64,000 nucleotides of DNA from a virus. The stretch is taken from the IMG/VR virus record IMGVR_UViG_3300044730_000313, positions 1 through 64,000 of that record. One strand, 5' to 3'. A program made the translations under genes and the position numbers. The notes under the pieces were generated by a model. It was not told where the DNA came from. It saw only the letters and a program-made list of their open reading frames with translations, and did no database searches. Shown piece after piece: positions 180 to 18,493 of the stretch (positions within the stretch are counted from its first letter, which is position 1; each line of letters begins with the position of its first letter).

Positions 180-587
180 TTAGTAGCAACCTCCTCTGCA
201 TTTACCACCCAATTTCATCATCTTAGCTCCGCCCATAGCTTTTCTTGTATGAGCTGAAGAAAGACGTCTAGATGTAGATGATTTACTAGGAGAAAGTGTA
301 CCACCAACTTTTAGCTTTTTGCTAGAACCAAGGCGCTTAGATACACTAGAAACTGTGGGAGAAAGAGATGCACCACCACGAGCTTTCTTAGGTTTCTTAC
401 CAGCTTTCTTCATAGCAATAGCTGTAGCAGCTTGCTTCTTTAGTTTAACACCACCTTTAGCTTCTTTTTTAGCAGCTACGATGATATCAGCACGTGTTAC
501 ACCAGGATTCTTATCAAACCCAGCTTTTACAGATTTCATACCAAGGGCAGATTTACCACCGTTTTGATATTTTTTCATTGTTCCCAT
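180..587 (-). CDS. Lys-rich basic protein, putative DNA-condensing/internal virion protein
   Basis: 135 aa, very K/G/S-rich, several xxxGG motifs (KKYQNGG, EAKGG, KARGG, KAMGG); tightly packed operon. Confidence 0.65.
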   Translation of the reverse strand: MGTMKKYQNGGKSALGMKSVKAGFDKNPGVTRADIIVAAKKEAKGGVKLKKQAATAIAMKKAGKKPKKARGGASLSPTVSSVSKRLGSSKKLKVGGTLSPSKSSTSRRLSSAHTRKAMGGAKMMKLGGKCRGGCY

Positions 588-608
588 TGTTATATTAGAT
601 TTTAATTG

Positions 609-1088
609 TTAGCAATTCCATTTTCTCAACGATTTGTTGATTCTGCTGTTTGGATCGTTAGCAGTTTTTGCTGATGTAAGACGCTTCTTCATGCCAGACA
701 TACGAGCACAGAAGCTCTTACGTCTGTTAGCAGCTTTGCTTCCAGCCTTTAATTTTGAGGGCTTAGTGGTAACAGCTGTCTTAAGCTTACTTCCAGGATT
801 AGCACGTCTGTACGATGCAACACCCTTAGCATTCAATCCACCAGAAGGATTCTTTCCTTCCTTTCTTTGCCAAGCAGGTGTGCTACCACCACTACGTAAT
901 TTAGGCTGAGCCCATTTAGGAGCTTTACGAGCATCTTGACGCTCTTCACGTCTAGCTTGTCTATCAGCTTGACGGTTTTCTCTAGCAGCCTGACGTTCAT
1001 CCTTGCGTATTTGTTTTTCAATACCACAAGATCTCCCTCCAGATCTACCAACGCGCTCACCAAATTGAGCCTTTTTAATCCTAGCCAT
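609..1088 (-). CDS. basic phage protein, DUF6321-like C-terminal domain
   Basis: AWQRKEGKNPSGGLNAKG...RRKSFCARM...SRINKSLRKWNC resembles a widespread small basic phage family (recognised from memory). Confidence 0.65.
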   Translation of the reverse strand: MARIKKAQFGERVGRSGGRSCGIEKQIRKDERQAARENRQADRQARREERQDARKAPKWAQPKLRSGGSTPAWQRKEGKNPSGGLNAKGVASYRRANPGSKLKTAVTTKPSKLKAGSKAANRRKSFCARMSGMKKRLTSAKTANDPNSRINKSLRKWNC

Positions 1089-1089
1089 G

Positions 1090-1581
1090 TTATTTCTTTT
1101 TGCCCTTGTACTTATAATTAGGATTGTCTCTGTGCCATTTCTTGGTAGCAGCCACTCCCTGTTTAACAGTTTTGGCTTTACCTTTTCTGGTGAGGTTGAT
1201 GGTGTCCCATTTACCCTTGTCTTTAGTGGGATGGTTTACCATTATGTCTCCTTTTGTACCCTTAGTATAATTTTTGGCAGCTTTATAAACTACATGTTTC
1301 TCACCACCAGCCATCACCTTCACCTTACCACCAGTTTTTAGTGTAGATCCCTTTACAGAGACGCCCCTCACAATCCCCTTTCTTTTAATCAAGGGACCGT
1401 TTGGGACGGGACTGATAGAACCTTTTATAGATGTAACACTGTCTCCATTTTTAAGAACCCCCTTTCCTACATAAGCAGAAGCTTTCTGTGGGTTCCTAAC
1501 ACCATTGCCCCTAGTGATGTTCTGGGGCAACGTGTTGCGCATTCTAGGAGCGCTCTTGAGGAGTTTCTTTATAGAGTTCAT
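1090..1581 (-). CDS. basic hypothetical protein
   Basis: 163 aa, K-rich, 1-nt spacing to both neighbours. Confidence 0.65.
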   Translation of the reverse strand: MNSIKKLLKSAPRMRNTLPQNITRGNGVRNPQKASAYVGKGVLKNGDSVTSIKGSISPVPNGPLIKRKGIVRGVSVKGSTLKTGGKVKVMAGGEKHVVYKAAKNYTKGTKGDIMVNHPTKDKGKWDTINLTRKGKAKTVKQGVAATKKWHRDNPNYKYKGKKK

Positions 1582-1582
1582 T

Positions 1583-1936
1583 TTACTTCTTACGCATCTT
1601 CTTCAGAGTCTGAGCAAGACGTGCACGCTGACCAAGCTTTCCTTTTGACTTAGCAGCTTTAGCTAGCTTAGCAGCAGGAATTGGTTTACCAGGTTTAGCA
1701 CCAAGTTGAGCACGCAGAGCTCCAGGCTTTTTGATAGCCTTTTGAATCCACTTGCCACCCTTGGCCATAGATGTAGCACCCTGTTGCTTGTCTTTTGTAA
1801 GACTCACCTTGGTTTTTACATTACGAGGAGGCAGGTTCATTTCCTGCACCTTTGTCCAAGCACCCTTAGGATCAACTGGTCCAACACGTTTATTAGAAGC
1901 ATTTAAGCCAGCTTGGGCTTTCTTCATCTTTCCCAT
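1583..1936 (-). CDS. basic phage protein
   Basis: 117 aa; C-terminal KWIQKAIKKPGALRAQLG...GQRARLAQTLKKM resembles a common phage basic module; start overlaps the upstream stop. Confidence 0.7.
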   Translation of the reverse strand: MGKMKKAQAGLNASNKRVGPVDPKGAWTKVQEMNLPPRNVKTKVSLTKDKQQGATSMAKGGKWIQKAIKKPGALRAQLGAKPGKPIPAAKLAKAAKSKGKLGQRARLAQTLKKMRKK

Positions 1937-2385
1937 TATTTCTTAGATTTAGCTTTGATCTTGCGTTCTTGTTTGAGCATAGCAGCTGTAGGCTTTTTAC
2001 CAGGCTTACCAGCAGCTTTGTTACGCTTTGCAGCAGCACGGATGTTATCCCACAAACCACGTTGTGAAACAGATCCATCAGCACGCTTCATCATTTGCTT
2101 GCCACCTTTAGCTCTACCCACCTTAATACCTCTGCGACCAATGTTTGTTTTGGAAGGAGGCATAGCTCCCTTCTTATTAAGCTCCTTGATCATTTCACTT
2201 TCCAATGCAGGACGTTTAGGAGCTGCTTTCTTGGAAGGAGTTTTTTTGGAAGGATCTAATGACTTAGGAGTTTTTCCAGGATAATTCTTGTTTAAAACAG
2301 AATCACTTTTAGGATCATATTTCCTAAATAAAGTGGTATCAATAACATCACCACCTCTTTGATACTTCTTAATAGTCTTTCTCAT
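1936..2385 (-). CDS. basic phage protein
   Basis: 149 aa; KKYQRGG near the start, C-terminal GLWDNIRAAAKRNKAAGKPGKKPT module. Confidence 0.7.
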   Translation of the reverse strand: MRKTIKKYQRGGDVIDTTLFRKYDPKSDSVLNKNYPGKTPKSLDPSKKTPSKKAAPKRPALESEMIKELNKKGAMPPSKTNIGRRGIKVGRAKGGKQMMKRADGSVSQRGLWDNIRAAAKRNKAAGKPGKKPTAAMLKQERKIKAKSKK

Positions 2386-2686: not shown

Positions 2687-2961
2687 TTTATTTCAAACAC
2701 AATGGTTGCAGAGGCTTTAATAGACTTAGACAGGTTGAGCTTGATTTGGAAGATGTTGTGCAGTTTTAGTATCTCCTCTAAGAGTAATTCATTATATTTA
2801 GGTAGGCTAGCAGCCAGTCTAAAGTGATATGAGTGGGGGTTCTTGGTTATCTCGAGGGTGGATAATTCATCCACTGAGTTAATCACTCCCTCCAGGTGTG
2901 CAAAATAAGCTTGTTCGTTATCTGGCATCACCTCAGAGAAGAACCTCTTACTTACGGTCAT
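2674..2961 (-). CDS. hypothetical protein
   Basis: 95-aa ORF; start overlaps the stop of the upstream Dps-like gene. Confidence 0.65.
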   Translation of the reverse strand: MTVSKRFFSEVMPDNEQAYFAHLEGVINSVDELSTLEITKNPHSYHFRLAASLPKYNELLLEEILKLHNIFQIKLNLSKSIKASATIVFEINLDN

Positions 2962-3374
2962 TACGATAGAGTTAGGAGATATTTGGTCTTTGCAGCTTCA
3001 CCACTTAAGGCATCAGCTAGGTTTGCAATGTCATGAAAGCTGTTGCTCTCAGCAAAACTCTTAAGGCTGGAGGCGAAACTCATAAGCTCGCTCACCACAA
3101 TACTAGCACTTGCTGTATCTGATAGAGGTTCCATCTTGGGTGCTTTGGGACGCTTGCCCATATAGCCCATGAGCTTCTCAATCACCCCATCCTTAAAATC
3201 ATGTACATAGTCATACAATCCACCAAGAGCTTGGTGTTCTGCATAACTAGTTGTAGTCCAATGCAATAGATGTAATTGTTCATGGAAATAGGTGAGCTTC
3301 CCTGCAATATTTTCCAGGGTCATTTCACCAGTCCCACTCTTCAGCATGTCTGAAGGGAATAATGATTTTGCCAT
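2961..3374 (-). CDS. Dps/ferritin-like four-helix protein
   Basis: HLLHW...HQALGGLYD...DGVIE matches the Dps ferroxidase-centre pattern. Confidence 0.75.
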   Translation of the reverse strand: MAKSLFPSDMLKSGTGEMTLENIAGKLTYFHEQLHLLHWTTTSYAEHQALGGLYDYVHDFKDGVIEKLMGYMGKRPKAPKMEPLSDTASASIVVSELMSFASSLKSFAESNSFHDIANLADALSGEAAKTKYLLTLS

Positions 3375-3376
3375 GA

Positions 3377-3622
3377 TTAGATGGTTGTTGTGCTACTAGT
3401 TGTTGTTGTTGTGGTAGGTGCTGCTGTAGTGCTACTAGTAGTGGTAGTAGTTGGAGGAGCTGTAGTGGTAGTGGTGGTTGTAGGAATACAACACTCATTA
3501 GCATCAATCTCTTTCCAGTTACCCACCTTAGGTTTATTGCGCTGAAGAATCAAACTACCAGCGATTACACGTCCTGTTCCATCGAAACGAACGTATGCTT
3601 TTAATTTATTATTAGTTGCCAT
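3377..3622 (-). CDS. small putative virion protein with poly-Thr tail (paralogue A1)
   Basis: KAYVRFDGTGR...PKVGNWKEI..ECC followed by about 35 aa of Thr/Ser/Pro. Confidence 0.75.
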   Translation of the reverse strand: MATNNKLKAYVRFDGTGRVIAGSLILQRNKPKVGNWKEIDANECCIPTTTTTTTAPPTTTTTSSTTAAPTTTTTTSSTTTI

Positions 3623-3634
3623 AGGTTAGGAGTT

Positions 3635-3856
3635 TTATCTAGCAGTTGTACTACTAGTAGTGGTTGTAGTGGTAGGAGGTACCGTTGTTGAAGATGTGGT
3701 TGTAGTGGTAGGTTCACAGCACTCATATGCTGGAATCTCCACCCATTTACCCACCTTGGGCTTCTTTCTCCTGAGGATCAGGCTGCTGGGGACGATTCTC
3801 CCAGTACCATCAAAGCGTACATAGGCTTTGAGCGGGCGTTTGTCAATTGTGGCCAT
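3635..3856 (-). CDS. small putative virion protein with poly-Thr tail (paralogue A2)
   Basis: Same KAYVRFDGTGR...PKVGKWVEI..ECC head followed by a Thr/Ser tail. Confidence 0.75.
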   Translation of the reverse strand: MATIDKRPLKAYVRFDGTGRIVPSSLILRRKKPKVGKWVEIPAYECCEPTTTTTSSTTVPPTTTTTTSSTTAR

Positions 3857-3858
3857 GA

Positions 3859-4875
3859 TTAATAATTAAGATTGTATTTATTAGATAATTTTTTAAGCTC
3901 GTTTGCGTAATACCATGTACAACGTGGTTTACTCTTTTCATCATTTAACACCACATCTAGATGAGGATCTTTTGTGGGATCTCCACCCGTGTGATATTTA
4001 GCTTTGTAAAAGCAGGCATATCCATCCATTTGTGTAGATACTATCCCTGCGTTATGAAAGATGGGGTGGGTTTCTAGTTTGGTGATGGGATCAGGGGCCC
4101 ATGAAAAGCCCATTTCATCTATCACCTTCACCTCTTTTTCTCTCACCCATAGGTTCCAAAGCACAGCCCACATATCAGCGCACCAGCTCTGGAATCCCTT
4201 GTTTTCGTTCTCAAAGAACTCTTTGTTTATTCTCTGAAGGTAGCTTCTAATCAGGATGCAATCGTTCATCACCTTGCTCCAGAAAGCTGCATCTATGTTC
4301 TTCAGAAGGTATTGTGCACCACCTGAATCTTTATCTTTTTGTTCAGCTTCCTCACGACTAATCCCAACTACACTTCCAATCTCAGCTAGGATGTCTCGTG
4401 TTTTGTATTCTTCCAGCTTATCAGGAAGCACATCTCTTACCTTGCTGTCAAAGTAAGCAGCGCCTATATAACTCTGTGTATCAGATAGATAGCACACGTC
4501 ATCATCTATATACTTTTGAACGTCAAACGCTTCTGTAAAGAGCACGTCTGAATCGCAGTAGAAGATTGCCTTATCACTGAGCTCTGGGTGTTCTTTCCAG
4601 TGTCTCCAAAGGGTGTAAGGTCTCAGCACTGGGATGTATATCCCTAATAGTTGACTCACATCATGTTCATCTTTGTAGAAGTGAAACTCAGCTTCTGGAT
4701 AGAGGTCTGTTACCTGTTTCCATTTCTTGTTCACCTCTCTGTCTTTAGGAGTGAAGATGAGCACAACTGCTTTATCTGCCTCTCCTCTGTTCTTTAAACT
4801 TTCCAGCCACATGTGCACTTGCCATGTGTAATACTGATCGTCTGGTTGAACACAGACATACTTAAGATCCTTCAT
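3859..4875 (-). CDS. GT-A glycosyltransferase, similar to peptide O-glycosyltransferases (GT95 HPAT / GT96 SERGT-like)
   Basis: Motifs YYTWQ, YIPVLRPY, YCDSD (DxD) and SWCADMWA occur in the order of the plant HPAT/SERGT motifs (YxxWQ, YxxxNxP, DxD, W.xEMY). Confidence 0.6.
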   Translation of the reverse strand: MKDLKYVCVQPDDQYYTWQVHMWLESLKNRGEADKAVVLIFTPKDREVNKKWKQVTDLYPEAEFHFYKDEHDVSQLLGIYIPVLRPYTLWRHWKEHPELSDKAIFYCDSDVLFTEAFDVQKYIDDDVCYLSDTQSYIGAAYFDSKVRDVLPDKLEEYKTRDILAEIGSVVGISREEAEQKDKDSGGAQYLLKNIDAAFWSKVMNDCILIRSYLQRINKEFFENENKGFQSWCADMWAVLWNLWVREKEVKVIDEMGFSWAPDPITKLETHPIFHNAGIVSTQMDGYACFYKAKYHTGGDPTKDPHLDVVLNDEKSKPRCTWYYANELKKLSNKYNLNY

Positions 4876-4901: not shown

Positions 4902-5051
4902 CTACGTTGGTTGCGTAGTGGATGTAGTGGTAGTGGTGAAATTGTCATTAAGCTCACAAAGCTGGCAGGATATTCCCTCCAGTTGCTTTGCAATCTGCCA
5001 CAACAAGTTCTCTGTGGTACCCCACCCTATTTGTCTGCTAGGTATTGGCAT
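4902..5051 (-). CDS. 49-aa anchor + poly-Thr protein (paralogue B1; not in ORF track)
   Basis: Manual translation MPIPSRQIGWGTTENLLWQIAKQLEGISCQLCELNDNFTTTTTSTTQPT*; near-identical to the N-terminus of the 5053..6201 protein. Confidence 0.8.
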   Translation of the reverse strand: MPIPSRQIGWGTTENLLWQIAKQLEGISCQLCELNDNFTTTTTSTTQPT

Positions 5052-5052
5052 T

Positions 5053-6201
5053 TTAATAAGTTTTGTTCAGTATGAAAATATCACTATATATACTGTTTCC
5101 TGTGCTAGCAGCACCCCATTGAATAGTGACATCTAATGTATTACTGATTGTTGTATCAAATGTTGTACTATTGACTGTGTTAAACGCAAAACCCTCAACA
5201 ACACCATTCACCGTTTTAGTGTAGTGGAATCCACCTAAAGTGACAATTGATGCTACACCAGCAGCTCCTAGTTGTCTAATGGTGAAATCTATATTCAAAT
5301 TAAACACATTGTTTGTAATATTTGTGATGTTCTGTGCTCCACTGTCAAGTAGGATAACAGATCCTGTTTTCACTCTAACTCTTATAGTTTGGTTATTTGT
5401 AGCAGTTAAAAGTCCACCAAACACAGCTCTAAAGCTATCTCCTACAGAGAACCCATTAGCTGGTACAGATAGTGTACCCACACCACCGTTAATTAAACTG
5501 GTTTCTGTAGTGGTGTTAGTGATTATAGTGCTGTTTGCTGTCTGAGCAAAAAGTCCATAATTCACTGATGTTGGTAGTGTTGCAGAAGTTCCACTGGTAC
5601 CTGAAGTGCCACTAGTACCAGTAGACCCACTAGTGCCTGAGGTACCCGAGGTTCCAGTTGATCCACTTGTACCGCTAGTTGCGCTCGTACCACTAGTACC
5701 AGCAGTACCAGAGGTACCGTTTGTACCATTACCACCAGCAGCTCCATTGAGGTTAACACCCCAAGAGCTATAAGTGCCTGATCCCGTCAATTGAGAAGGT
5801 GTACCAAATACCAAAACCCCTGTAAGGGGATTATATGAAGTGACCGTTGAAACCTGATGATTATTAATATCGTATGCTATCAGTACGTCCTGAGCTGTTG
5901 TATATGCTAGCCCAGTACCTATAGTGATAGTTCCACCAGTTCCTAATGTAAATGTGCTGGATGACGTAGTTTGATATCTATCTCCAGGTTGTCCAGCACT
6001 TCCTGAAGTTCCCGATGTTCCAGCTGTCCCAGATATGCCCGATGTTCCAGAGGTGCCAGAGGTACCGCTTGTACCAGTGATGATTCCAATGTTATCATTG
6101 AGCGTACAGAGCTGACAGCTAGCTTGCTCCATCTGTTTAGCAATCTGCCACAGCAGGTTATCCTGTGTGCTCCAGCCTATCTGTCTTGAGGGTATTGGCA
6201 T
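5053..6201 (-). CDS. putative virion fibre/decoration protein with GTS repeats (paralogue B2)
   Basis: 382 aa: MPIPSRQIGW anchor, two (GTS)n tracts flanking a beta-rich domain, C-terminal beta-sandwich-like domain. Confidence 0.7.
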   Translation of the reverse strand: MPIPSRQIGWSTQDNLLWQIAKQMEQASCQLCTLNDNIGIITGTSGTSGTSGTSGISGTAGTSGTSGSAGQPGDRYQTTSSSTFTLGTGGTITIGTGLAYTTAQDVLIAYDINNHQVSTVTSYNPLTGVLVFGTPSQLTGSGTYSSWGVNLNGAAGGNGTNGTSGTAGTSGTSATSGTSGSTGTSGTSGTSGSTGTSGTSGTSGTSATLPTSVNYGLFAQTANSTIITNTTTETSLINGGVGTLSVPANGFSVGDSFRAVFGGLLTATNNQTIRVRVKTGSVILLDSGAQNITNITNNVFNLNIDFTIRQLGAAGVASIVTLGGFHYTKTVNGVVEGFAFNTVNSTTFDTTISNTLDVTIQWGAASTGNSIYSDIFILNKTY

Positions 6202-7282: not shown

Positions 7283-7523
7283 TGTTGTTTCCTTTTGTTT
7301 TGTTAATAAATTTATCTACAGATGCTATACCGAAGCAAGCAATAGTAAGTATTTTAAAAGAGTCAAATATGAACTCGTTAACCAACAGAGGCTTGTTCAT
7401 AGCTCCTGTAACAATATCTGCCACAGCAAATATTGTCATCATGATAAAGGCAGCAAATCCAATCACTGCTTTCTCGTTGATGGAATTCTCATCATTGAAG
7501 AGATCGCTTAAGAACTTTTTCAT
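7257..7523 (-). CDS. putative holin (two TM)
   Basis: 88 aa, two hydrophobic helices, charged C-terminus, immediately after the endolysin. Confidence 0.6.
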   Translation of the reverse strand: MKKFLSDLFNDENSINEKAVIGFAAFIMMTIFAVADIVTGAMNKPLLVNEFIFDSFKILTIACFGIASVDKFINKTKGNNNEQEGIES

Positions 7524-8119
7524 GCTAGTAGATTATGGTATTCTTTAAAATGTTTGATACGATCAGCCAGACCAATTGTACCACCATTTACACGCTTAGT
7601 CACCTCAGTGACTACAGCGTCTGTAGCACCCTTGTCAGCTATTTTGTGTAATCCATTTTTATGGAAAAACCATGCTGCAGAAAGGAGGGGATATTTGCTA
7701 GCCACCAAGTCTGGGTTAGCTAGGATGTCCTCAGGAACTACAGCATCAAATGCTTTGTAGTTATCCTTTCCTGTAAGCTGGATGTAGCCTCTTCCACGGA
7801 ACTTAAATCCTTCACCAGAGGCTTCAGGACCATTGCCCATTCTTCCTCCATATACCAAATTGGCTATCTTTTCAGGCTTACGCTCGTATTCCTTAGCCTT
7901 GGCTTCTGTAGGGAAGTATTTCTTAAATATACCTAGAAGGCCTTTTGCCCCATAGTTCAGGTTTTCGGTTGTAGCTTTGAACCCACCACTCTCATGCCCT
8001 GTTTGAGCTAAGAAGTGAGCTAGTCGTAAGGGTGTATTGAGCTCAAACTTCTGCATAGTGTCAGGAATCTGAGATATTACGCTGTCTGGGATGTGTCCTT
8101 TTAGTTTATCTAGGTTCAT
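7520..8119 (-). CDS. endolysin, glycoside hydrolase family 19
   Basis: RLAHFLAQTGHESGGF, ENLNY, FRGRGYIQLTGKDNY, TKRVNGG motifs. Confidence 0.92.
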   Translation of the reverse strand: MNLDKLKGHIPDSVISQIPDTMQKFELNTPLRLAHFLAQTGHESGGFKATTENLNYGAKGLLGIFKKYFPTEAKAKEYERKPEKIANLVYGGRMGNGPEASGEGFKFRGRGYIQLTGKDNYKAFDAVVPEDILANPDLVASKYPLLSAAWFFHKNGLHKIADKGATDAVVTEVTKRVNGGTIGLADRIKHFKEYHNLLA

Positions 8120-8909: not shown

Positions 8910-11900
8910 ATGCCAAACAGTTACACATATTTTAAACCTGAAATCAAGCAGTGGTTTCTAGATAATGTTCCCACCAGTAAACGCATCCTAGATGTAGGTC
9001 CTGGACAGGGTACATATTCTGACCTGCTTAGAGATCATGGGTATAGAATAGATGCTGTAGAAATCTGGGCTCCTTACGTAGATCAGTTTGGATTGAGGGC
9101 TAAATATGACAATGTCTACATAGCAGACATCCGTGAGTTTGATATAAGCGATTATGACTTCATCATACTGGGAGATGTCCTAGAACATCTGTCTACAGAG
9201 GATGCCAAGCGTCTAATAGACAAGATATTATTTTCAGAGATGGGGTGTCTTGTGGCCATTCCCTACATGATGCCTCAAGAGGGGGCAGAATATGGAAATG
9301 AACATGAAACCCATTTACAGCCAGACCTCACACCACAGGTGATGATGGATAGATATCCCAGTTTGGTAAAACTGTATGATAATCAGTGGTATGGATATTA
9401 CGTAATGGAGGATAGCAAGTGGGAAAAGGCCTATGTACTCTATGCCACAGAAAGCTACAAGGACACTGTACAAGCCTGTGTGGACAGCATCAAGATGGTG
9501 AGTGAGATTCCCATTATTGTCTACATGCTTAATTCAGATGTTGATATAAAGGGAGCTGTCACCATCAAGTGGGAATGCAATGTTGACAATCCTAAGCAGG
9601 ACAAATACATCAATAGAGCTAGCAGTGACATATATAAGATACTTATACAACGTCCAGCTATTGTAAAAGATGCGCTTAGATATGCTAAGACGGTGGCTTA
9701 TATAGATAGCGATAGTGTAGCTACAAGATATATAGATACCATCTTTGACTATTTCCCAGTTAAGAATACCCATCCCTATTTTGTAGAGGGTATATATGAC
9801 TGGATGGTGCTAAATGGTAGGGGTGGAGCAATGTCTTATGATGACCTATCCACCACCCTAGAACACCCAGCTTGTTACTTGTTCAAGGTGGATCAGTATT
9901 TTAGAACCACCTACAGACAGACAGGCTATTTTGTAACTGGTCAGTGGTGTGAAAACTTTCTAGATGAATGGGTGTGGATGTGTAACCATCCAGCCATCCT
10001 TAAGAACCCACAATATTACGCTCCCTATCACGAGGAAACCATAGCCAATGTGCTTCTGTGGAAGTGGAGGGTGAACAAGGGACTGCCCTATCTATACATA
10101 AACGGTTCACTAGATATGGTGAACAATGTAGAATTCACTGGTTACAAGAAACACACTAGTCATTTTGTAGCCAGCCCTGCTTCTGAGAACCAACTGCTTT
10201 TCTATCACGGAGAGAAAGATGCTGTCACCATGTACAGAATGATAGAACGTATAAACCGTCTAAGAGTGCTGTTTGTAGCTCCTCACCTGTCTACAGGTGG
10301 TATGCCTGCCTTCCTCTTGAGAAGAATACAAGCTCTGCAGGCGCACACAAACGTAGACATCTATGTGGTGGAATATGCCAATCACAGTGATCACTATGTT
10401 GTGCAGAAAGATCAGATAAAACAGCTAGTGAAACACTTCTACACCCTGGGAGAAGATAAGCACGAACTTATAAATATCATACAACAGAACTTTATAGATA
10501 TTGTACACGTAGAGGAGATGGTGGAAGATGGCTGGAACAACTGGCCAGAGAGTTTAAGGGAAGCTCTCTATGCTTCTGATAGGACATGGAGGATGGTGGA
10601 AACCTGTCATAACATTGTGTTCAAGCCAGACATTGAGAAGCGCTTCCATCCAGACAGCTACATGTTCTGCACTCCCCACCACCTGAAGACATTTGTAAAC
10701 ATGCCTTCTCCTAAATACGTGGTGGAATACCCCATAGAAAAGAAGAATGCTGTAAAGCTAGACCTAGGACCAGGAAAGCATGTACTTAATGTAGGACTAT
10801 GGACTCCTGGCAAGAATCAAGGAGAAGCTGTAGAGCTAGCTAGACAAATGCCAGATGTGCACTTCCACTTTGTAGGGAATCAAGCAGGTAACTTCCAGCA
10901 CTACTGGGAACCTCTAATGAAAGATGTTCCTTCTAATGTGCATGTGTGGGGAGAGCGTAATGATGTAGGTAGTTTTATGAAGGGGTGTGATGTCTTCCTT
11001 TTTAACAGTACGTTTGAGTGTAATCCTCTGGTGATTAGAGAAGCCATAGGATTTGGTAAACCCATCATAGCTCGCAACCTCCCACAATATGGAGACATGT
11101 TCACTAAATACATCACTGACCTAGACCCAAAGAGGCTCAAGGAACAGGTGTATGAACAGCTTGACAATCCAAAGAAGTATGATGTTCCTGAGAACGAAGA
11201 GTTAGAGTTTGCCCTGTCTCATCTTGCCATCTATCAGAAGGTGACACATAGTCCCATACAGTCTAATGAAACCATAACCATCGATCACAACTTTGTGTTA
11301 CAACCCTTCCTTGAAATCAAGGGTAGGTCTAAGAGTAAGTTCAGGGTGGAATATCTAGATGAGCAGGGCGTGTGTCATTACAGAAACACAATAGGTGTTA
11401 ACAACTGGGTGAAGCTCAACAGGAGGTGGTATACCAAGTGGACCATTAAGATATGGAAAGACGATGAGCCCTATTATGAATACACCCTAGACTATACAGG
11501 CAAACGCGTGTATATAGCCTTTGATAGTAAATCCTTGGGAGACACAATAGCCTGGATGCCCTACGCTCTTGAGTTTAAGAAGAAGCACAACTGCCATGTG
11601 ATAGTGAGTACATTCAAGAACTTTCTGTTTGATGTCGTTTATCCAGAGCTTGAGTTTATTGAACCAGGACAACCTGCTTCCAACATATATGCTCAGTATT
11701 GTATTGGTTGGTTTTACAATTCAGACAAAGAACCAGCTTTGTGTAACATCGTAAAGCTCCAAGAGGCAGCCACTAACATCTTAGGTCTTGAGTTTCAAGA
11801 GATTAGACCCAGAATAGCCTTCACTCCTGGTGACAATTTATATGGTAAATATGTTACAATAGCCACCAACTCAACAGCAGGCTGTAAGTTCTGGACCAAA

Positions 11901-12326
11901 GAAGGCTGGCAGCAAGTGATTAACTTCCTGCACGAGAAAGGATATAAGGTAGTAAATGTGTCCAAAGAAAAGAATCCTTTTGACAACTGTGAGCAGATAG
12001 AGGATGTGTCCATGGAAAACACTATGAATGTCATCCATCATAGCCATCTATTTATTGGACTATCTAGTGGACTTAGTTGGTTAGCCTGGGCTATGAATAA
12101 GAAGGTGGTGATGATATCCAACTTTACAGACTCAGATCATGAGTTTAGCTGCATCAGAATTACCAAGACAGATGTGTGTCATGGCTGTTGGAATAAGGCT
12201 GAATACAGATTTGATGCAGGAGATTGGGACTGGTGCCCAGAGCACAAAGGTACAGACAGACAGTTTGAATGTCACCAGAAGATATCTGCTAGTCAGGTTG
12301 TTTTTGCTCTTTTAAACCATATTTAA
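8910..12326 (+). CDS. four-domain enzyme: SAM methyltransferase + GT-A glycosyltransferase + GT4 glycosyltransferase + Aah/TibC-type O-heptosyltransferase
   Basis: ILDVGPGQG (SAM motif); YIDSDS (DxD); PHLSTGGMP / PGKNQ / FECNPLVIREA (GT4); SLGDTIAWMPY, FIGLSSGLSWLAWA and CHGCWN..WCPEH..FEC (TibC iron-finger). Confidence 0.82.
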   Translation: MPNSYTYFKPEIKQWFLDNVPTSKRILDVGPGQGTYSDLLRDHGYRIDAVEIWAPYVDQFGLRAKYDNVYIADIREFDISDYDFIILGDVLEHLSTEDAKRLIDKILFSEMGCLVAIPYMMPQEGAEYGNEHETHLQPDLTPQVMMDRYPSLVKLYDNQWYGYYVMEDSKWEKAYVLYATESYKDTVQACVDSIKMVSEIPIIVYMLNSDVDIKGAVTIKWECNVDNPKQDKYINRASSDIYKILIQRPAIVKDALRYAKTVAYIDSDSVATRYIDTIFDYFPVKNTHPYFVEGIYDWMVLNGRGGAMSYDDLSTTLEHPACYLFKVDQYFRTTYRQTGYFVTGQWCENFLDEWVWMCNHPAILKNPQYYAPYHEETIANVLLWKWRVNKGLPYLYINGSLDMVNNVEFTGYKKHTSHFVASPASENQLLFYHGEKDAVTMYRMIERINRLRVLFVAPHLSTGGMPAFLLRRIQALQAHTNVDIYVVEYANHSDHYVVQKDQIKQLVKHFYTLGEDKHELINIIQQNFIDIVHVEEMVEDGWNNWPESLREALYASDRTWRMVETCHNIVFKPDIEKRFHPDSYMFCTPHHLKTFVNMPSPKYVVEYPIEKKNAVKLDLGPGKHVLNVGLWTPGKNQGEAVELARQMPDVHFHFVGNQAGNFQHYWEPLMKDVPSNVHVWGERNDVGSFMKGCDVFLFNSTFECNPLVIREAIGFGKPIIARNLPQYGDMFTKYITDLDPKRLKEQVYEQLDNPKKYDVPENEELEFALSHLAIYQKVTHSPIQSNETITIDHNFVLQPFLEIKGRSKSKFRVEYLDEQGVCHYRNTIGVNNWVKLNRRWYTKWTIKIWKDDEPYYEYTLDYTGKRVYIAFDSKSLGDTIAWMPYALEFKKKHNCHVIVSTFKNFLFDVVYPELEFIEPGQPASNIYAQYCIGWFYNSDKEPALCNIVKLQEAATNILGLEFQEIRPRIAFTPGDNLYGKYVTIATNSTAGCKFWTKEGWQQVINFLHEKGYKVVNVSKEKNPFDNCEQIEDVSMENTMNVIHHSHLFIGLSSGLSWLAWAMNKKVVMISNFTDSDHEFSCIRITKTDVCHGCWNKAEYRFDAGDWDWCPEHKGTDRQFECHQKISASQVVFALLNHI

Positions 12327-12513: not shown

Positions 12514-12896
12514 AGCTTACCCTCCGCTTTCATTTGCTCACGTATTTTTGTGGCAGATATGTCATGTATATCTGCAGGAGGAATGTGCTCAATAACATCA
12601 TAGCCCACACCTCTACCAATGTTGATGGACTCAATATTAGGAATCTTTATGATGCTCAGCCTACCAGTCTCAAGTAGTTCTTTAAGTTCACTAGATAGAT
12701 TCATCAGTATTTCCTGTGCGGTCCAGGGATTCTTTTCATCCACAGGCACATCTCTTATGCAGAGAAGCACCTTCTTATCCTCGTTCAGAGCTTGATCAAT
12801 AAGCCATCTGTGTCCTGCATGCCAGGGTTGCCATCTTCCAATAAACATTGCCCACTCTCCTGATTTGTGAGCAGCTTTTGCCAGTACGTTTTGCAT
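12510..12896 (-). CDS. HIGH-superfamily nucleotidyltransferase (cytidylyltransferase-like; possible minimal ATP sulfurylase)
   Basis: FIGRWQPWHAGH and ISATKIR motifs; ATG at 12896 preferred over the track start at 12935. Confidence 0.7.
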   Translation of the reverse strand: MQNVLAKAAHKSGEWAMFIGRWQPWHAGHRWLIDQALNEDKKVLLCIRDVPVDEKNPWTAQEILMNLSSELKELLETGRLSIIKIPNIESINIGRGVGYDVIEHIPPADIHDISATKIREQMKAEGKL

Positions 12897-13639
12897 AATG
12901 TTAATCCTTCGTTTAATGAATATCGTGGTGCCCAACCAGGCATCCAGTATCTAGGATTGCTACATGTGTAGAACTGGTATCCTTCTGGTATAGCTAATTG
13001 GTCATGATAGGTGTATGGTATATCCAATACGTCTGCAATATACTCAAAGCTGTGTGCCTCTCCAAGTCCTACATCATATTTCTTTCCTGATAGCACATCG
13101 TAATGTGCTAGAGCACGTAGATTAGCTAGTATTACATCATCCACATATATAAAGTCACGCTTGGGCTCACCAGGAAACAGCTTTGTGCTTCCAGCTTTTA
13201 ACATCTGGAAAGCCATAGAAGCCATCTTACCCTTATGTTCTTCTCCTGGTCCATAGACATTGTAATATCTAAGCGCTATTCCTCCTCTACTAAGAACATA
13301 CTGCTCACCCACATATTTGGACCACCCGTAGAGGTTTGATGGACATACACCATTGTTCCCATAACATGCTGCTGAGGAGGAGTAAATGAGGGGAACGTTG
13401 TTATTGTGACACCAGTCTGAAATAATTCTTGTTGATTCATAGTTAGTAAGCATTATGTAATTAACGTCTGTCTCCAGGGTGTTAGAACAAGCTCCTACAT
13501 GAAACACAGCCTCTGGCTTGTTCTCATCTAACCACTCTGTAGTGACAGGTGTGTCTTCATTAAGCTCAAGAGGGCTGTCAAAATACTTCTTTAAATTGCC
13601 CCCTATAAACCCTTTAGTCCCTGTGATTAATACCTTCAT
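12785..13639 (-). CDS. hldD: ADP-L-glycero-D-manno-heptose 6-epimerase
   Basis: ITGTKGFIG, YSSSAACYG, YGWSK and LRYYNVYGPGEEHKGKMAS (HldD-typical) motifs. Confidence 0.85.
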   Translation of the reverse strand: MKVLITGTKGFIGGNLKKYFDSPLELNEDTPVTTEWLDENKPEAVFHVGACSNTLETDVNYIMLTNYESTRIISDWCHNNNVPLIYSSSAACYGNNGVCPSNLYGWSKYVGEQYVLSRGGIALRYYNVYGPGEEHKGKMASMAFQMLKAGSTKLFPGEPKRDFIYVDDVILANLRALAHYDVLSGKKYDVGLGEAHSFEYIADVLDIPYTYHDQLAIPEGYQFYTCSNPRYWMPGWAPRYSLNEGLTLCKTYWQKLLTNQESGQCLLEDGNPGMQDTDGLLIKL

Positions 13640-14382
13640 GGTGTATTCACCCCTCTTTTAGATACAACAATAGAGCTCATCTTATTAGCAAAGGTAATAG
13701 AAACATCAACATCTTGCACCTGTAAATACTTGATAGCAAAAGCAGCCAGGAATGTATCACCAGCCCCTGACACATCTATTGTTTCTTTGGGTTCTGTAGG
13801 ATAGAGAGTGCCCATATATTTAGCTCCCTTACCACCTAGTGTAATAATCATCCTGAGGAGCAGTTGTCTGTCATCTGTTCTATTGTATTCCCACTCTAAC
13901 TCATTGAGTTTTACAAAGTTGTAGAGCAAGATGGTATCTGGATGCAGCTTCTTCTTAGTATCAAGAAATGAAAGTTTTGCAAGTTCTGCTATTTCTTGGA
14001 GCATCTCTTCTGTTAGAAAGCCCTTATTGTAATCACTTACAATTACAGCATCTGCTTCTTTAATCTTTTGTATAACATCCTCTGTAAACCTGAAGGGCAC
14101 CATAGCTCCATTCTCACCCTCATCCACTCTGAGGAACATGTGGTTGGTTTTCCTGTCAATATATCTGCACTTAACAATCACCTCAGACTGACAGATGCAT
14201 TCGATTTGATATTCATCCGTGAGCGCTTCTAGGTTCTTTCTAACATTCCCAGCCATCCCATGGTTTAATGTTCTGGTGATGTTAGACAACACAGGGACAG
14301 GAGCTTCTGGAGATAGTCTTTTAACATCTCCATAAGTGAATACATCTATACAACTCTCACCTATTACTAGTATCTTTTTCAT
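13636..14382 (-). CDS. heptose-7-phosphate kinase (HldE/RfaE domain I, PfkB family)
   Basis: RLSPEAPVPV, GMAGNV, VSDYNKG, DVSGAGDTF motifs. Confidence 0.9.
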   Translation of the reverse strand: MKKILVIGESCIDVFTYGDVKRLSPEAPVPVLSNITRTLNHGMAGNVRKNLEALTDEYQIECICQSEVIVKCRYIDRKTNHMFLRVDEGENGAMVPFRFTEDVIQKIKEADAVIVSDYNKGFLTEEMLQEIAELAKLSFLDTKKKLHPDTILLYNFVKLNELEWEYNRTDDRQLLLRMIITLGGKGAKYMGTLYPTEPKETIDVSGAGDTFLAAFAIKYLQVQDVDVSITFANKMSSIVVSKRGVNTP

Positions 14383-14758
14383 AGCTCAGTATTGTAGTTG
14401 TTGAAATTTCCGCTATCCTCTCAAAGTACCTAACATTCTTAGAATGTTCTGCTCCAATTACACGTTTATCCCTATAGTCAGAACCCACTATCATTATGTC
14501 TGGTTGATAGAGTTTGATCTGATCAATAAGCTCCTGCTCACTACCAAACCCCACCACTTCATCTACAAAGCGTAGAGACTCTAGCATTTCCTTTCTGTCT
14601 TTAAAACAATTAAAGGGCCTTGTGGGACCCTTTAGCTCTTTTATTCTATCATCTGTGTCTATTCCCACTCTCAAATAGCCCATAGCTGCTGCATATTTTA
14701 AGAGCTTTATGTGTCCTATATGTAGGATGTCAAAAGCTCCGTTCACCCATATTCTCAT
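14357..14758 (-). CDS. heptose-1-phosphate adenylyltransferase (HldE/RfaE domain II)
   Basis: NGAFDILHIGH, LKGPTRP, VGSDY, ISTT motifs. Confidence 0.88.
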   Translation of the reverse strand: MRIWVNGAFDILHIGHIKLLKYAAAMGYLRVGIDTDDRIKELKGPTRPFNCFKDRKEMLESLRFVDEVVGFGSEQELIDQIKLYQPDIMIVGSDYRDKRVIGAEHSKNVRYFERIAEISTTTILSYEKDTSNR

Positions 14759-15057
14759 ATCTCTTCTATACGTTTAGTTTTATCACATATCATTAGGTCG
14801 TATGCAGGCTTGTGGTTCATAATCAGATGGGTGTATTTACAGTTCCAATCATGTAACTGTTTGATTGTCAGCATTTTATAATCATGTCTAGACTGTTGAC
14901 CTCTAGCTGTGTAATACACTATCTCGTGTCCCTCATCATAGAGCTTGTTTATCTTGGCTATGTGTTCAGGAATAGGAACACAGTTTTCATAGTCAGATCC
15001 TTGTGTTTGACAAATAGTGTTGTCAATGTCTACATATATTTTTAGTCTCCTTTCCAT
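14755..15057 (-). CDS. short HAD-family phosphatase
   Basis: YVDIDNT, YTARG, KP..DL.ICD motifs; possible functional equivalent of GmhB. Confidence 0.75.
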   Translation of the reverse strand: MERRLKIYVDIDNTICQTQGSDYENCVPIPEHIAKINKLYDEGHEIVYYTARGQQSRHDYKMLTIKQLHDWNCKYTHLIMNHKPAYDLMICDKTKRIEEI

Positions 15058-15413
15058 ATTCTGTAGCTGTCTGTATCAAAGTGCTGTGTACTCACCTCAA
15101 ATATCTCACCATCCTCTAGAGCCTCAAGCTGATGTGGCTGTCCTGGGTATTGTGTCACCACATCTCCAGGCTTTAATTGTGTAGAATGTTCTATTCCTTC
15201 TGTTGTATCTATCCAGCGGTAGATGAATGTCCCTTTGTTTACATACCATGTTTCCTGTTTTATCAGATGGTAATGCATAGAGAACTTACATCCAGCTTTA
15301 AACACCAGTATCTTCCCACAATACTTCTCAGAGTTGTGGATGATGAGCTCATGTCCCCAACCCTTAGCTATTTTACATTCAGAACATTCGTGAACGTTGG
15401 TTAACATAGTCAT
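15042..15413 (-). CDS. cupin-fold sugar-phosphate isomerase-like protein
   Basis: KGWG.E, SMHYH..KQETWYV, PGQPHQL, EVST cupin motifs. Confidence 0.75.
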   Translation of the reverse strand: MTMLTNVHECSECKIAKGWGHELIIHNSEKYCGKILVFKAGCKFSMHYHLIKQETWYVNKGTFIYRWIDTTEGIEHSTQLKPGDVVTQYPGQPHQLEALEDGEIFEVSTQHFDTDSYRIWKGD

Positions 15414-15831
15414 TGATTAAGGATAGACATCTTTTTATTGAAAGATCCGTTGTACTTAGGCTCAGCACCTTCTCATCATTTGTAGGCATTTCAAAATCAG
15501 GAACATGAAATGACTCTCTTCCTCTCTCATCTGTGTAATGTAAATACACCCACACCACATTATTGGTGAGGTTATTGAGATAGTCTCTAGCTTCTTTGTA
15601 GGGATAGACCAATGATACAACAACATTGCTTCTTGTAGAGTTGAGGAAGTGAGCTATGTCACTAGCCCTATTCAGGTTCTTAATCCTACCCTCCTTAGAA
15701 TAGTCCTTGTTTGCAAACAGCTCTCTAAGCTTGTCCCCATCTATGTTTACAAATGTGGATGTCTGCTTTATTATCTCATTAGCGATGGTGGACTTACCAC
15801 TGTGAGGCTGTCCAAAGAGTACGATTATCAT
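15379..15831 (-). CDS. cysC: adenylylsulfate (APS) kinase-like
   Basis: P-loop GQPHSGKST, IDGDKLR, DYSKEGRIKNL, FEMP motifs. Confidence 0.8.
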   Translation of the reverse strand: MIIVLFGQPHSGKSTIANEIIKQTSTFVNIDGDKLRELFANKDYSKEGRIKNLNRASDIAHFLNSTRSNVVVSLVYPYKEARDYLNNLTNNVVWVYLHYTDERGRESFHVPDFEMPTNDEKVLSLSTTDLSIKRCLSLINDYVNQRSRMF

Positions 15832-16646
15832 TTGCTATATCTGAATTGATCAAAGAACCATTTGTAGTTTGTGTAAATCCAATCTGTCACATCCTTACCA
15901 AGGAGCTGTTTAGCCTTAGACTGTACAGGCTCAAGCTTCTTTCTAATCACATGGTCACCAAACTGACCATACACCTCATCATCCTCCTTAGTTACCTGCT
16001 CAATGTTATCAAAGTCATGATCATAATAGGGTATGTCAAGGTATTGGTATATCCTAATCATCTCTGATTTAGGATAGAGACAGAGGTCTTCAAACTTGAC
16101 AAATAGCATCTTGTCTGCATATCCTAGTCTAAAGAGTTCACTCAACCTTTCGATAGCAAGACCAACAGGTTGACTCTGTGCCCAGATGTCTATACGTTTA
16201 GGAACTGTTGTACCAGTCATCTGTGCCCAGTTGAGAATAGCATTTGCTTTGTCAGGATGCTTTCTATAATTGTTCTCCATAGAAGCAAACACATCACGCA
16301 GGTCTCTCACCATGCATATAATCTTTGGATCAGGCTGTATGAAATTCAAAAAGTCATAGTGTATACCCCATCCTCTAGACTTGTCAACAACATATTTCTT
16401 GTCTGTAATAGCATTGTAATACGCATCCATACCGTGTTTACAGAAAGCTTGGAAGGCTTTCTTCATCACCTCAGGGTCTTGAGCCTGGAACTCAGGGCTG
16501 TCTGTATAATTAGTCCTGGCTGCAAACACAAGTTCTAACACACCACTAGTAGGAGTGGCATAGATGTCTGGGTTCTGGGCTAGGATGTTTTGTAACAGTG
16601 TAGATCCTGCTCTTGGCAGGGAGGATTGATAGAATATCTTCTCCAT
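15828..16646 (-). CDS. PAPS-dependent sulfotransferase
   Basis: 5'-PSB motif SLPRAGSTLL, DKSRGW, 3'-PB motif VRDLRDVFAS, FEDL. Confidence 0.88.
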   Translation of the reverse strand: MEKIFYQSSLPRAGSTLLQNILAQNPDIYATPTSGVLELVFAARTNYTDSPEFQAQDPEVMKKAFQAFCKHGMDAYYNAITDKKYVVDKSRGWGIHYDFLNFIQPDPKIICMVRDLRDVFASMENNYRKHPDKANAILNWAQMTGTTVPKRIDIWAQSQPVGLAIERLSELFRLGYADKMLFVKFEDLCLYPKSEMIRIYQYLDIPYYDHDFDNIEQVTKEDDEVYGQFGDHVIRKKLEPVQSKAKQLLGKDVTDWIYTNYKWFFDQFRYSK

Positions 16647-17568: not shown

Positions 17569-17913
17569 TTATTCTTCAGTGGTGGTGGTGGTAGTGGTAG
17601 TTGGACTATAAGCCAACACTGCCTCAGCAAGATCGTTCAACAACTCCTGATCCAGATCTTCTGCTTGCACTCTGAAGGATTCAGCATTAGGTTGGTTAGG
17701 TAACCAGTCTGAGAAAAGGGTGTTAAAGTTGTTGATCGCATGGAAGCTTTTAGGACCTGCATATCCTTCAGGTCTGTTAGCCCATACATCATCCACTACA
17801 GCATCCACCTGAGCCTGAAAAGCTGATATGGGAGCCTGTACATTCTGTGTGTCAGAGATTGCTTGTACAGTTCCAAATCCAAAGATGTGGAGGGTGTTCC
17901 AAGTTTGCGCCAT
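17569..17913 (-). CDS. fibre-associated small protein with poly-Thr tail
   Basis: 114 aa ending SPTTTTTTTTEE; lies downstream of the fibre genes. Confidence 0.65.
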   Translation of the reverse strand: MAQTWNTLHIFGFGTVQAISDTQNVQAPISAFQAQVDAVVDDVWANRPEGYAGPKSFHAINNFNTLFSDWLPNQPNAESFRVQAEDLDQELLNDLAEAVLAYSPTTTTTTTTEE

Positions 17914-17927
17914 GTTACTAGTTTTTA

Positions 17928-17959
17928 CAAAATTAATAAATATTTATGATTATTCCAAA
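17928..17959 (-). promoter_or_regulatory. Bacteroidota-type promoter
   Basis: TTTG (17959-17956), 20-nt spacer, TAATTTTG (17935-17928); shares the tatgat.attccaaa context with the 17537 promoter. Confidence 0.7.
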
Positions 17960-17965
17960 GTTATC

Positions 17966-18493
17966 TTAGCAAGTTACAGGGAAGCTAACTACATACCAAT
18001 CAGTTCCATTATATCCCACCTCAACAGCATTATTAGGTGAATACCAGTACCAAGAAGTTGTTGTGCTCAATTGATAGAAACCATTGATTGTCAAGATGGT
18101 ATTTGTTGTAAGAGTTCCTGTATAAGAGTACACTGCTGTAGCTGCTGTTGCTCCATTATTACAAGCATCAGTGGAAGAGGTCCAGCCGTTTGTAATAGCT
18201 TTATTTCTTCCACTACCATGTAATGTAATACTTGTTGGTGCAGATGTGGTAGTAGTGGTAGTTGTCGTACCAGAAGCAACTAGATCAGATTTAACAACCA
18301 ACTGATTAGAAGCCTTTGCTGCATAAGGAGCATAAGAAGTGTCAATACTCACATAAGTGCTTGCGTCTGACTTAGTTATCTGTTCACTGCTAACAGGAAT
18401 AGTGGTAAGGGCTGTGAAAACACCAGTGTTTACAGCGTTCTGAAGGTTGTTAAATGATACAGTTTGGTTATTTGCTAAACCTGCCCAACTCAT
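17966..18493 (-). CDS. putative distal fibre/receptor-binding accessory protein
   Basis: 175 aa, two domains joined by a poly-Thr linker; ATGA overlap with the stop of the giant fibre. Confidence 0.65.
   Translation of the reverse strand: MSWAGLANNQTVSFNNLQNAVNTGVFTALTTIPVSSEQITKSDASTYVSIDTSYAPYAAKASNQLVVKSDLVASGTTTTTTTTSAPTSITLHGSGRNKAITNGWTSSTDACNNGATAATAVYSYTGTLTTNTILTINGFYQLSTTTSWYWYSPNNAVEVGYNGTDWYVVSFPVTC

Follow-up and report, generated by a model that had tools for sequence, protein, structure and literature searches.

A candidate threonine-tail O-glycosyltransferase and its putative carrier mini-proteins in a crAss-like-looking phage

The closest described system to the one considered here is the glycosylation of mycobacteriophage virions, reported for phages Che8, Corndog and Myrna (Freeman et al. 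2023, as described in the citing papers PMC12619734 and PMC12363180). In these phages, capsid and tail tube subunits bear C-terminal acceptor regions that are matched by phage-encoded glycosyltransferases (GTs), the sugars are added in the cytoplasm before assembly, as we propose here, and glycosylation of the virion changes its recognition by antibodies. Beyond the mycobacteriophages, we found no experimentally shown case of phage-encoded virion glycosylation in the literature searched. Two further enzyme groups resemble the proposed system in what they do. Plant HPAT (GT95) and SGT1/SERGT1 (GT96) enzymes act on peptides, and their acceptors are repetitive, unstructured and rich in Pro and hydroxyl residues (extensins), as suggested for the GT described below. 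Aah/TibC enzymes (TIGR04414) O-glycosylate Ser/Thr residues in the cytoplasm on proteins that are later displayed, again as proposed for this GT.

The locus examined here lies in a 64-kb window (the whole stretch of DNA analyzed), which is the first part of a 113.7-kb (~114-kb) viral record of an uncultured phage, with a CheckV completeness of 98%. A Megablast search of phage records gave no match to the first 12.5 kb of the window, and tblastn gave no match to a 1217-aa structural protein of the phage. The sole tblastn match of a 2072-aa protein is a weak one to the crAss-like phage cr108_1. This match would fit a distant crAss-like lineage.

The features of the window that are discussed here are collected in Table 1. 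The GT gene is flanked by three mini-ORFs on the same strand, each ending in Thr/Ser/Pro runs, which bears out the gene arrangement described in the first-pass annotation. This glycosylation cassette is bracketed by a DUF5856 gene on one side and a GH19-type endolysin gene on the other. Five basic proteins encoded in tandem near the start of the window may be internal or DNA-binding virion proteins. The gene for a 3086-aa protein overlaps a GC-rich stretch (0.47–0.49 at 24–28 kb) and shows strong negative GC skew; Thr residues in the repeats of this protein could be further glycosylation sites.

Table 1. Features of the 64-kb window, in order of position
Feature	Coordinates	Strand	Matches and remarks
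Five small Lys/Gly/Ala-rich basic proteins, 117–163 aa, in tandem on one strand	180..2385	(-)	
DUF5856 protein	2961..3374	(-)	Also matches a PHROG annotated 'starvation-inducible transcriptional regulator'
'D' mini-protein 2, 81 aa; three Thr blocks; candidate acceptor	3377..3622	(-)	Paralogue of 3635-3856 (N-domain 70% identical)
'D' mini-protein 1, 73 aa; ~47-aa conserved beta domain with a terminal Cys-Cys, followed by Thr blocks; candidate acceptor	3635..3856	(-)	Directly downstream of GT
GT-A glycosyltransferase, predicted soluble, 338 aa; candidate Thr-tail O-glycosyltransferase	3859..4875	(-)	PHROG 4417
'U' mini-protein, 49 aa; fiber-type N-terminal anchor and Thr tail; candidate acceptor	4902..5051	(-)	Directly upstream of GT
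Tail fiber, 382 aa; collagen-like Gly-Thr-Ser repeat	5053..6201	(-)	Pfam Collagen E 1.4e-11; PHROG tail fiber families
GH19-type endolysin	7520..8119	(-)	
Multi-domain enzyme, 1138 aa; methyltransferase, middle region with DSD motif, GT4, C-terminal Aah/TibC-type O-heptosyltransferase domain	8910..12326	(+)	Pfam Methyltransf, Glycos_transf_1, Glyco_transf_9
Supply block: NAD epimerase, PfkB kinase, cytidylyltransferase-like nucleotidyltransferase, cupin, APS kinase, sulfotransferase	12785..16646	(-)	Pfam; phrog_540 nucleotide-sugar epimerase
Two small Thr-run proteins, 114 aa (C-terminal run) and 175 aa (internal run); candidate acceptors	17569..18493	(-)	
3086-aa protein; very long collagen-like Gly-Thr-Ser / Gly-Ser-Ser repeats	18490..27750	(-)	
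Large protein, 1684 aa; several Thr/Ser runs near the C-terminus; candidate acceptor	55843..60897	(-)	

The glycosyltransferase, its family and its fold

The central gene of the cassette is a real GT gene, with an ORF that is open from its ATG start and a product that carries catalytic-type motifs. The four sequences singled out in the first-pass annotation (YYTWQ, YIPVLRPY, YCDSD and SWCADMWA) are all present in the protein and lie on conserved columns. Five positions (Y80, D108, D110, H274 and K291) do not vary in an alignment of 70 sequences with 31–49% identity, and R85, Y106, Q229 and D234 hardly vary. In GT8-type enzymes, a DxD motif together with a later His forms the metal site. The protein matches PHROG 4417 nearly end to end (E 1.1e-55, residues 4–330 against positions 1–291 of a 293-position profile), a family that carries no functional name ('unknown function'). 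It has no Pfam match at E up to 0.1 and no NCBIfam match, and searches of the PDB by sequence or profile returned nothing meaningful.

The GT family has 2,662 matches in a database clustered at 90% and 762 representative clusters at 50% identity. It is carried by phages of Enterococcus, Staphylococcus, Lactobacillus, Lactococcus and Clostridium and by abundant crAss-like phages of Bacteroidota. Isolated phages that carry it include Enterococcus phage phiFL1A, Lactobacillus phages LP65 and Semele, Lactococcus phage 1706 and Chryseobacterium phage MA9V-3. In other genomes, the GT domain is found fused to GT2, GT6 or DXD-type GT domains, to methyltransferases or to a radical SAM/SPASM domain.

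An AlphaFold (AF2) model based on the 70-sequence alignment has a pLDDT of 97.6 and a pTM of 0.94 and shows the hallmarks of a GT-A fold: a Rossmann-like nucleotide-binding core with a DxD motif after the central strand. The N-terminus is the first strand of the fold itself (MKDLKYVCVQPDD...) and the model is globular from residue 4; neither a signal peptide nor a membrane segment is present in the sequence. GT8-type retaining GT-A enzymes are the best structural matches, and a Foldseek search of the PDB is concordant. The structural neighbors include glycogenin, LgtC, WbbM, the Skp1 alpha-galactosyltransferase, GlyE, XXYLT1 and the related catalytic domain of UGGT. When predicted viral structures are searched with Foldseek, the nearest are uncharacterised phage proteins, among them Orf49 of Lactobacillus phage LP65, and GT8-annotated proteins of giant viruses rank after these. 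The capsid glycosyltransferase A64R of chlorovirus PBCV-1, a eukaryotic-virus enzyme, is less similar to the GT than GT8 enzymes are; the A64R glycans are N-linked to Asn and are not on Thr. We conclude from the sequence and the model that the GT is a predicted soluble, probably retaining, metal-dependent GT-A transferase that would constitute a family of its own.

Although GT8-type enzymes share its three-dimensional fold, the GT has no Pfam Glyco_transf_8 match, and its identity to its GT8-type structural neighbors is only 8–14%. Two motifs, the N-terminal QP..Y..WQ and QSWCADMWA, are particular to the GT family in comparison with GT8. Glyco_transf_8 is also absent from the Pfam families listed for two sets of GT relatives, of 70 and 64 proteins.

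The first-pass annotation had likened the GT to the GT95 (HPAT) and GT96 (SERGT) enzymes. Family membership is not established by the present data, and the GT protein has no match to Pfam HPAT (PF23452). A six-frame search of the phage genome for PF23452 at E up to 10 found no match. Searches with the HPAT and DUF7164 models against the phage genome gave 0 matches, with no positive control matched either; the same limit applies to the 0 matches of the HPAT model in 5 homolog-carrying and 401 Bacillota genomes, where again no positive control matched. Sub-threshold HPAT matches do occur among the GT relatives, in 1 of 70 (E 0.012) and 3 of 64 (best E 3.4e-4), or 4 of 134 in all, and HPAT is found in 21 of the 30 nearest named Atlas clusters when neighbors of the GT are sought with a language model. 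A protein search with a divergent sub-alignment for HPAT-annotated bridging members recovered unannotated family members only. No PDB entry with a GT95 or GT96 title came up in searches with the GT, and none of the Pfam or PDB results bore the name GT96 or SGT1. In a published fold survey, GT95 is predicted to have a GT-A-like fold and GT96 a novel one (PMC8476585). The plant enzymes also differ from the GT in that HPAT has a type II membrane anchor and resides in the Golgi lumen, whereas the GT lacks a hydrophobic N-terminal segment, and in their acceptor residue, which is Hyp or Ser for the GT95/GT96 enzymes and would be Thr for the phage GT. Kinship of the GT to GT95 at the superfamily level seems to us evenly poised between true and false.

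Threonine tails beside the glycosyltransferase gene

Each of the mini-proteins joins a small conserved N-terminal domain to its Thr-rich tail. Over its first 37 residues, the U mini-protein shares 81% identity with the N-terminus of the neighboring collagen-like fiber, and from its sequence this protein looks like a fiber anchor in which a Thr stalk replaces the fiber. Because the U anchor is a copy of the fiber N-terminus, the Thr stalks are probably mounted on the virion. A model of D mini-protein 1 shows a small three-strand unit (pLDDT ~83) followed by a disordered tail, with the N-domain spanning ~35 residues in the model. Elsewhere in the phage genome, further Thr runs are encoded, for a total of 12 tracts in 9 ORFs as compared with 0–1 in shuffled genomes (n = 40). 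The runs are specified by mixed ACT/ACA/ACC/ACG codons, a pattern that points to selection on the protein sequence and sets the tracts apart from simple DNA repeats. The 114-aa and 175-aa Thr-run proteins have no family matches.

The association was examined in 80 viral loci related at 64–90% identity. Thr-tailed mini-proteins of two conserved families lie beside the GT in 79 of these 80 loci, and a Thr tract is present in 96 of 150 GT-flanking 1.5-kb windows but in only 10 of 404 control windows from the same loci. Fourteen loci initially scored as tract-less were mostly threshold misses, with short terminal tails of Thr7–8 in 13 of them. The upstream (U) family is defined by a ~35-aa, helical-looking N-terminus (MAIPSRQIGW...LLWQISKQLE) and the downstream (D) family, present in one or two copies per locus, by a ~47-aa N-domain (LKAYVRFDGSGR...KPKVGKW..ECCN). 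The tails range from one 7-Thr block to ~45 residues among the relatives. That the N-terminal domains are conserved over 80 related phage loci while tail length varies indicates that the mini-ORFs are real genes. The self-contained cassette of enzyme and acceptors put forward in the first-pass annotation is strongly supported by comparative genomics, including the gene-neighborhood check that it had called for.

Longer members of the D family, 128–147 aa in length, were observed at three loci (L014:11020–11406, L028:5044–5469 and L041:11036–11446), where an extra C-terminal domain follows the N-domain. In the L014 protein, a short Thr linker lies between the two. The joining of the N-domain to another C-terminal domain points to an anchor that can be reused as a mounting module.

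Thr-rich proteins also accompany GT homologs in distant lineages. In Enterococcus phage phiFL1A, Thr runs form the ends of both the major head protein, gp45, and the major tail protein, gp50 (L003:1884–1946 and 3918–3986), and the GT homolog gp51 comes after gp50. A 115-aa protein composed mostly of Thr repeats (gp075) directly precedes the homolog in Lactobacillus phage Semele, and the gene upstream of the homolog in a Chryseobacterium phage encodes a Thr linker. In ~12 Bacillota prophages, the GT lies 0–15 bp beyond the gene for a Phage_TTP_1 tail tube protein with the C-terminus ...YP-T(7-15)-G/A. The GT gene is found in late structural operons, where it lies beside fiber genes or separates the tail tube gene from the tail chaperone gene. 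Its carriers are lytic and temperate phages of different phyla and include lytic Herelleviridae.

The coupling was also examined in the reciprocal direction, using orthologous tail tube genes gathered independently of the GT. The GT follows all 19 of the Thr-tailed tail tube orthologs and is absent from 33 of the 35 without a detected tail (Fisher p 1.1e-12). In one of the two exceptions, a separate Thr-rich mini-gene precedes the GT (L223 / L152); in the other (L196), the frame of the tube protein was misread and the state of its tail is not assessable. On a tree of the tail tube core, there are at least 11 changes of state for the Thr tail and at least 12 for the GT. Independent tail/GT pairs on this tree agree in 11 of 11 cases and, on well-supported branches, in 4 of 4 (sign test p 0.125); with four pairs only on the strongly supported branches, the tree-corrected test is suggestive and not formally significant. 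A natural pair is provided by Staphylococcus aureus, with both tail and GT, and S. cohnii, with neither, whose tube cores are near-identical. Co-transfer of the Thr tail and the GT gene as one DNA block is conceivable, since the two lie side by side. Overall, the genomic coupling of the GT to Thr tails is tight and repeated. The first-pass annotation held that its reading would fall if the best structural match were a GT8-type enzyme and homologs were not linked to Thr-tail genes; the GT8-like match is indeed what we find, and the lack of linkage is clearly contradicted.

A different context is seen for homologs in the chromosomes of Chitinophaga, Pedobacter, Sphingobacterium and Mucilaginibacter. 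Here, the GT domain forms the N-terminus of 500–770-aa fusions of two GTs (L097:10001–11749, L096:10001–12136, L114:8919–11716, L124:8864–9994 and similar), with Glyco_transf_7C or GT2 as the C-terminal half. The fusions adjoin genes for SPASM maturase-like, AhpC/TSA thioredoxin lipoprotein and TPR proteins, and these loci may be peptide-modification clusters. For most of them, no Thr tract is present within ~10 kb on each side, which implies that the GT family is not restricted to Thr-tailed virion proteins. Just upstream of two of the chromosomal fusions are 82-aa Cys-rich ORFs with a short Thr run (L105:9596–9844 and L158:9609–9857), which are candidate precursor peptides.

Proposed mechanism and alternative readings

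We think it probable that the GT glycosylates Thr residues of unstructured poly-Thr tails with a nucleotide sugar and that the products coat the virion as a mucin-like brush. Late in infection, the soluble GT would O-glycosylate Thr in the disordered tails within the cytoplasm. The nearest acceptors would be the three mini-proteins, each consisting of a small conserved anchor and a Thr stalk, and the Thr runs of other structural proteins are likely acceptors too. The carriers would then join the particle through their conserved anchors and so form the sugar brush. We infer Thr as the acceptor residue, an initiating role for the GT and a virion location for the mini-proteins, and likewise the sugar used and the purpose of the coat.

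Other genes in the window may contribute to the glycan. The gene for the 1138-aa enzyme is 4 kb from the GT, and its heptosyltransferase-type domain and the sugar-supply genes are within 12 kb. The C-terminal 325 residues of this enzyme match TIGR04414, the Aah/TibC autotransporter O-heptosyltransferase equivalog, with E 5.6e-82 and 275.7 bits against a cut-off of 200. TIGR04414 matches only this neighbor and not the GT, which models as GT-A. The 1138-aa enzyme probably belongs to the same glycosylation toolkit as the GT. The NAD epimerase, PfkB kinase and nucleotidyltransferase of the supply block correspond in activity to HldD and to the two halves of HldE, the enzymes that produce ADP-heptose. 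Judged from the encoded domains, the block looks like an ADP-heptose-type sugar supply combined with a PAPS/sulfation pair, an unusual feature in a phage. Taken together, the heptosyltransferase domain and the supply and sulfation genes suggest a complete set of protein-glycosylation genes in this phage, among which the GT is the one whose occurrence follows that of Thr tails across phages. The heptosyltransferase-domain enzyme, the methyltransferase and perhaps the sulfotransferase would probably extend, methylate and sulfate the glycan.

The presence of a protein O-heptosyltransferase-type domain, scoring above a curated equivalog cut-off only 4 kb away, raises the alternative that the GT extends a glycan whose first sugar is added by the Aah/TibC-type domain in this phage and by a host enzyme in others. 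Indeed, the top structural neighbors GlyE, Skp1 alpha-galactosyltransferase and XXYLT1 extend existing protein-linked glycans. In the Bacillota prophages, however, the sole GT-type gene identified beside the Thr-tailed tube gene encodes a single-domain member of the GT family, and this single-domain GT co-varies perfectly with the tail. In addition, Aah/TibC enzymes are known to recognize folded beta-helix repeats rather than disordered Thr runs. We consider a purely extending role unlikely. It could also be that the acceptor is not a protein at all but a host cell-wall polysaccharide or teichoic acid, lipopolysaccharide or phage DNA, with the adjacency to Thr tails resulting from co-transfer as a mobile block. 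GT8-like folds include LgtC and WbbM, which use lipo- and polysaccharide acceptors, and the acceptor therefore cannot be read from the fold; the chromosomal Bacteroidota homologs mostly lack nearby Thr tracts, and adjoining DNA may be co-inherited. Such an acceptor is nevertheless quite improbable given that the GT lies inside late structural operons of lytic and temperate phages of different phyla, that none of the 19 tails is without a GT and that, of the two GTs without a detected tailed tube protein, one adjoins a Thr-rich mini-gene and the other is not assessable. Lysogenic-conversion transferases, moreover, commonly have a membrane segment, and the GT has none of this kind.

Apart from the genomic linkage, we see no support for the idea that the GT is catalytically inactive and binds Thr tails as a chaperone or assembly factor. 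The DxD aspartates and the His/Lys set are invariant down to ~31% identity to the GT, as expected of an active metal-dependent GT-A enzyme, and we regard this possibility as very remote. Two other roles were set aside. A DNA-modifying function is at odds with the location of the gene in structural rather than replication modules and with its co-variation with a protein feature, and a role in lysogenic conversion is at odds with a soluble protein encoded in a late operon and found also in lytic Herelleviridae.

A broader and more speculative picture can also be drawn, which we hold to be doubtful at present. PHROG 4417 might be a prokaryotic-viral sister of the plant extensin GT95/GT96 enzymes that founds a widespread, hitherto unrecognized mucin-like O-glycosylation of phage particles, with the mini-proteins serving as swappable glycan carriers whose glycans, in this phage, would be further built with heptose, methyl and sulfate groups.

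Significance and comparison with known systems

No published description of the GT family or of Thr-tailed tail tube proteins was found in the searchable literature, which covered few subscription journals. If the GT family does sugar-coat phage particles, glycosylated virions would be common, with relevance to phage therapy (immunogenicity, clearance and mucus adherence) and to the ecology of dairy and gut phages. A large family of 'hypothetical proteins', together with the poly-Thr tags, would gain a function. Natural presence/absence pairs with perfect agreement, such as the tail tube proteins of S. aureus and S. cohnii, offer directly testable material, and a poly-Thr tag with its GT might provide a simple handle for glyco-engineering.

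What the mycobacteriophage system and the GT family have in common is a phage GT that is genetically coupled to C-terminal tails on virion proteins. The enzyme family differs, as no Mycobacterium phage is among the 77 records matched by the GT in a tblastn search (E 1e-5) of 50,697 phage records. The candidate acceptors described here, unlike those of the mycobacteriophages, are near-pure Thr and are in part carried on dedicated mini-proteins. By analogy with the mycobacteriophages, in which phage virion glycosylation is already known, what would be new here is its execution by a different enzyme family, on poly-Thr tags and with dedicated mini-carriers.
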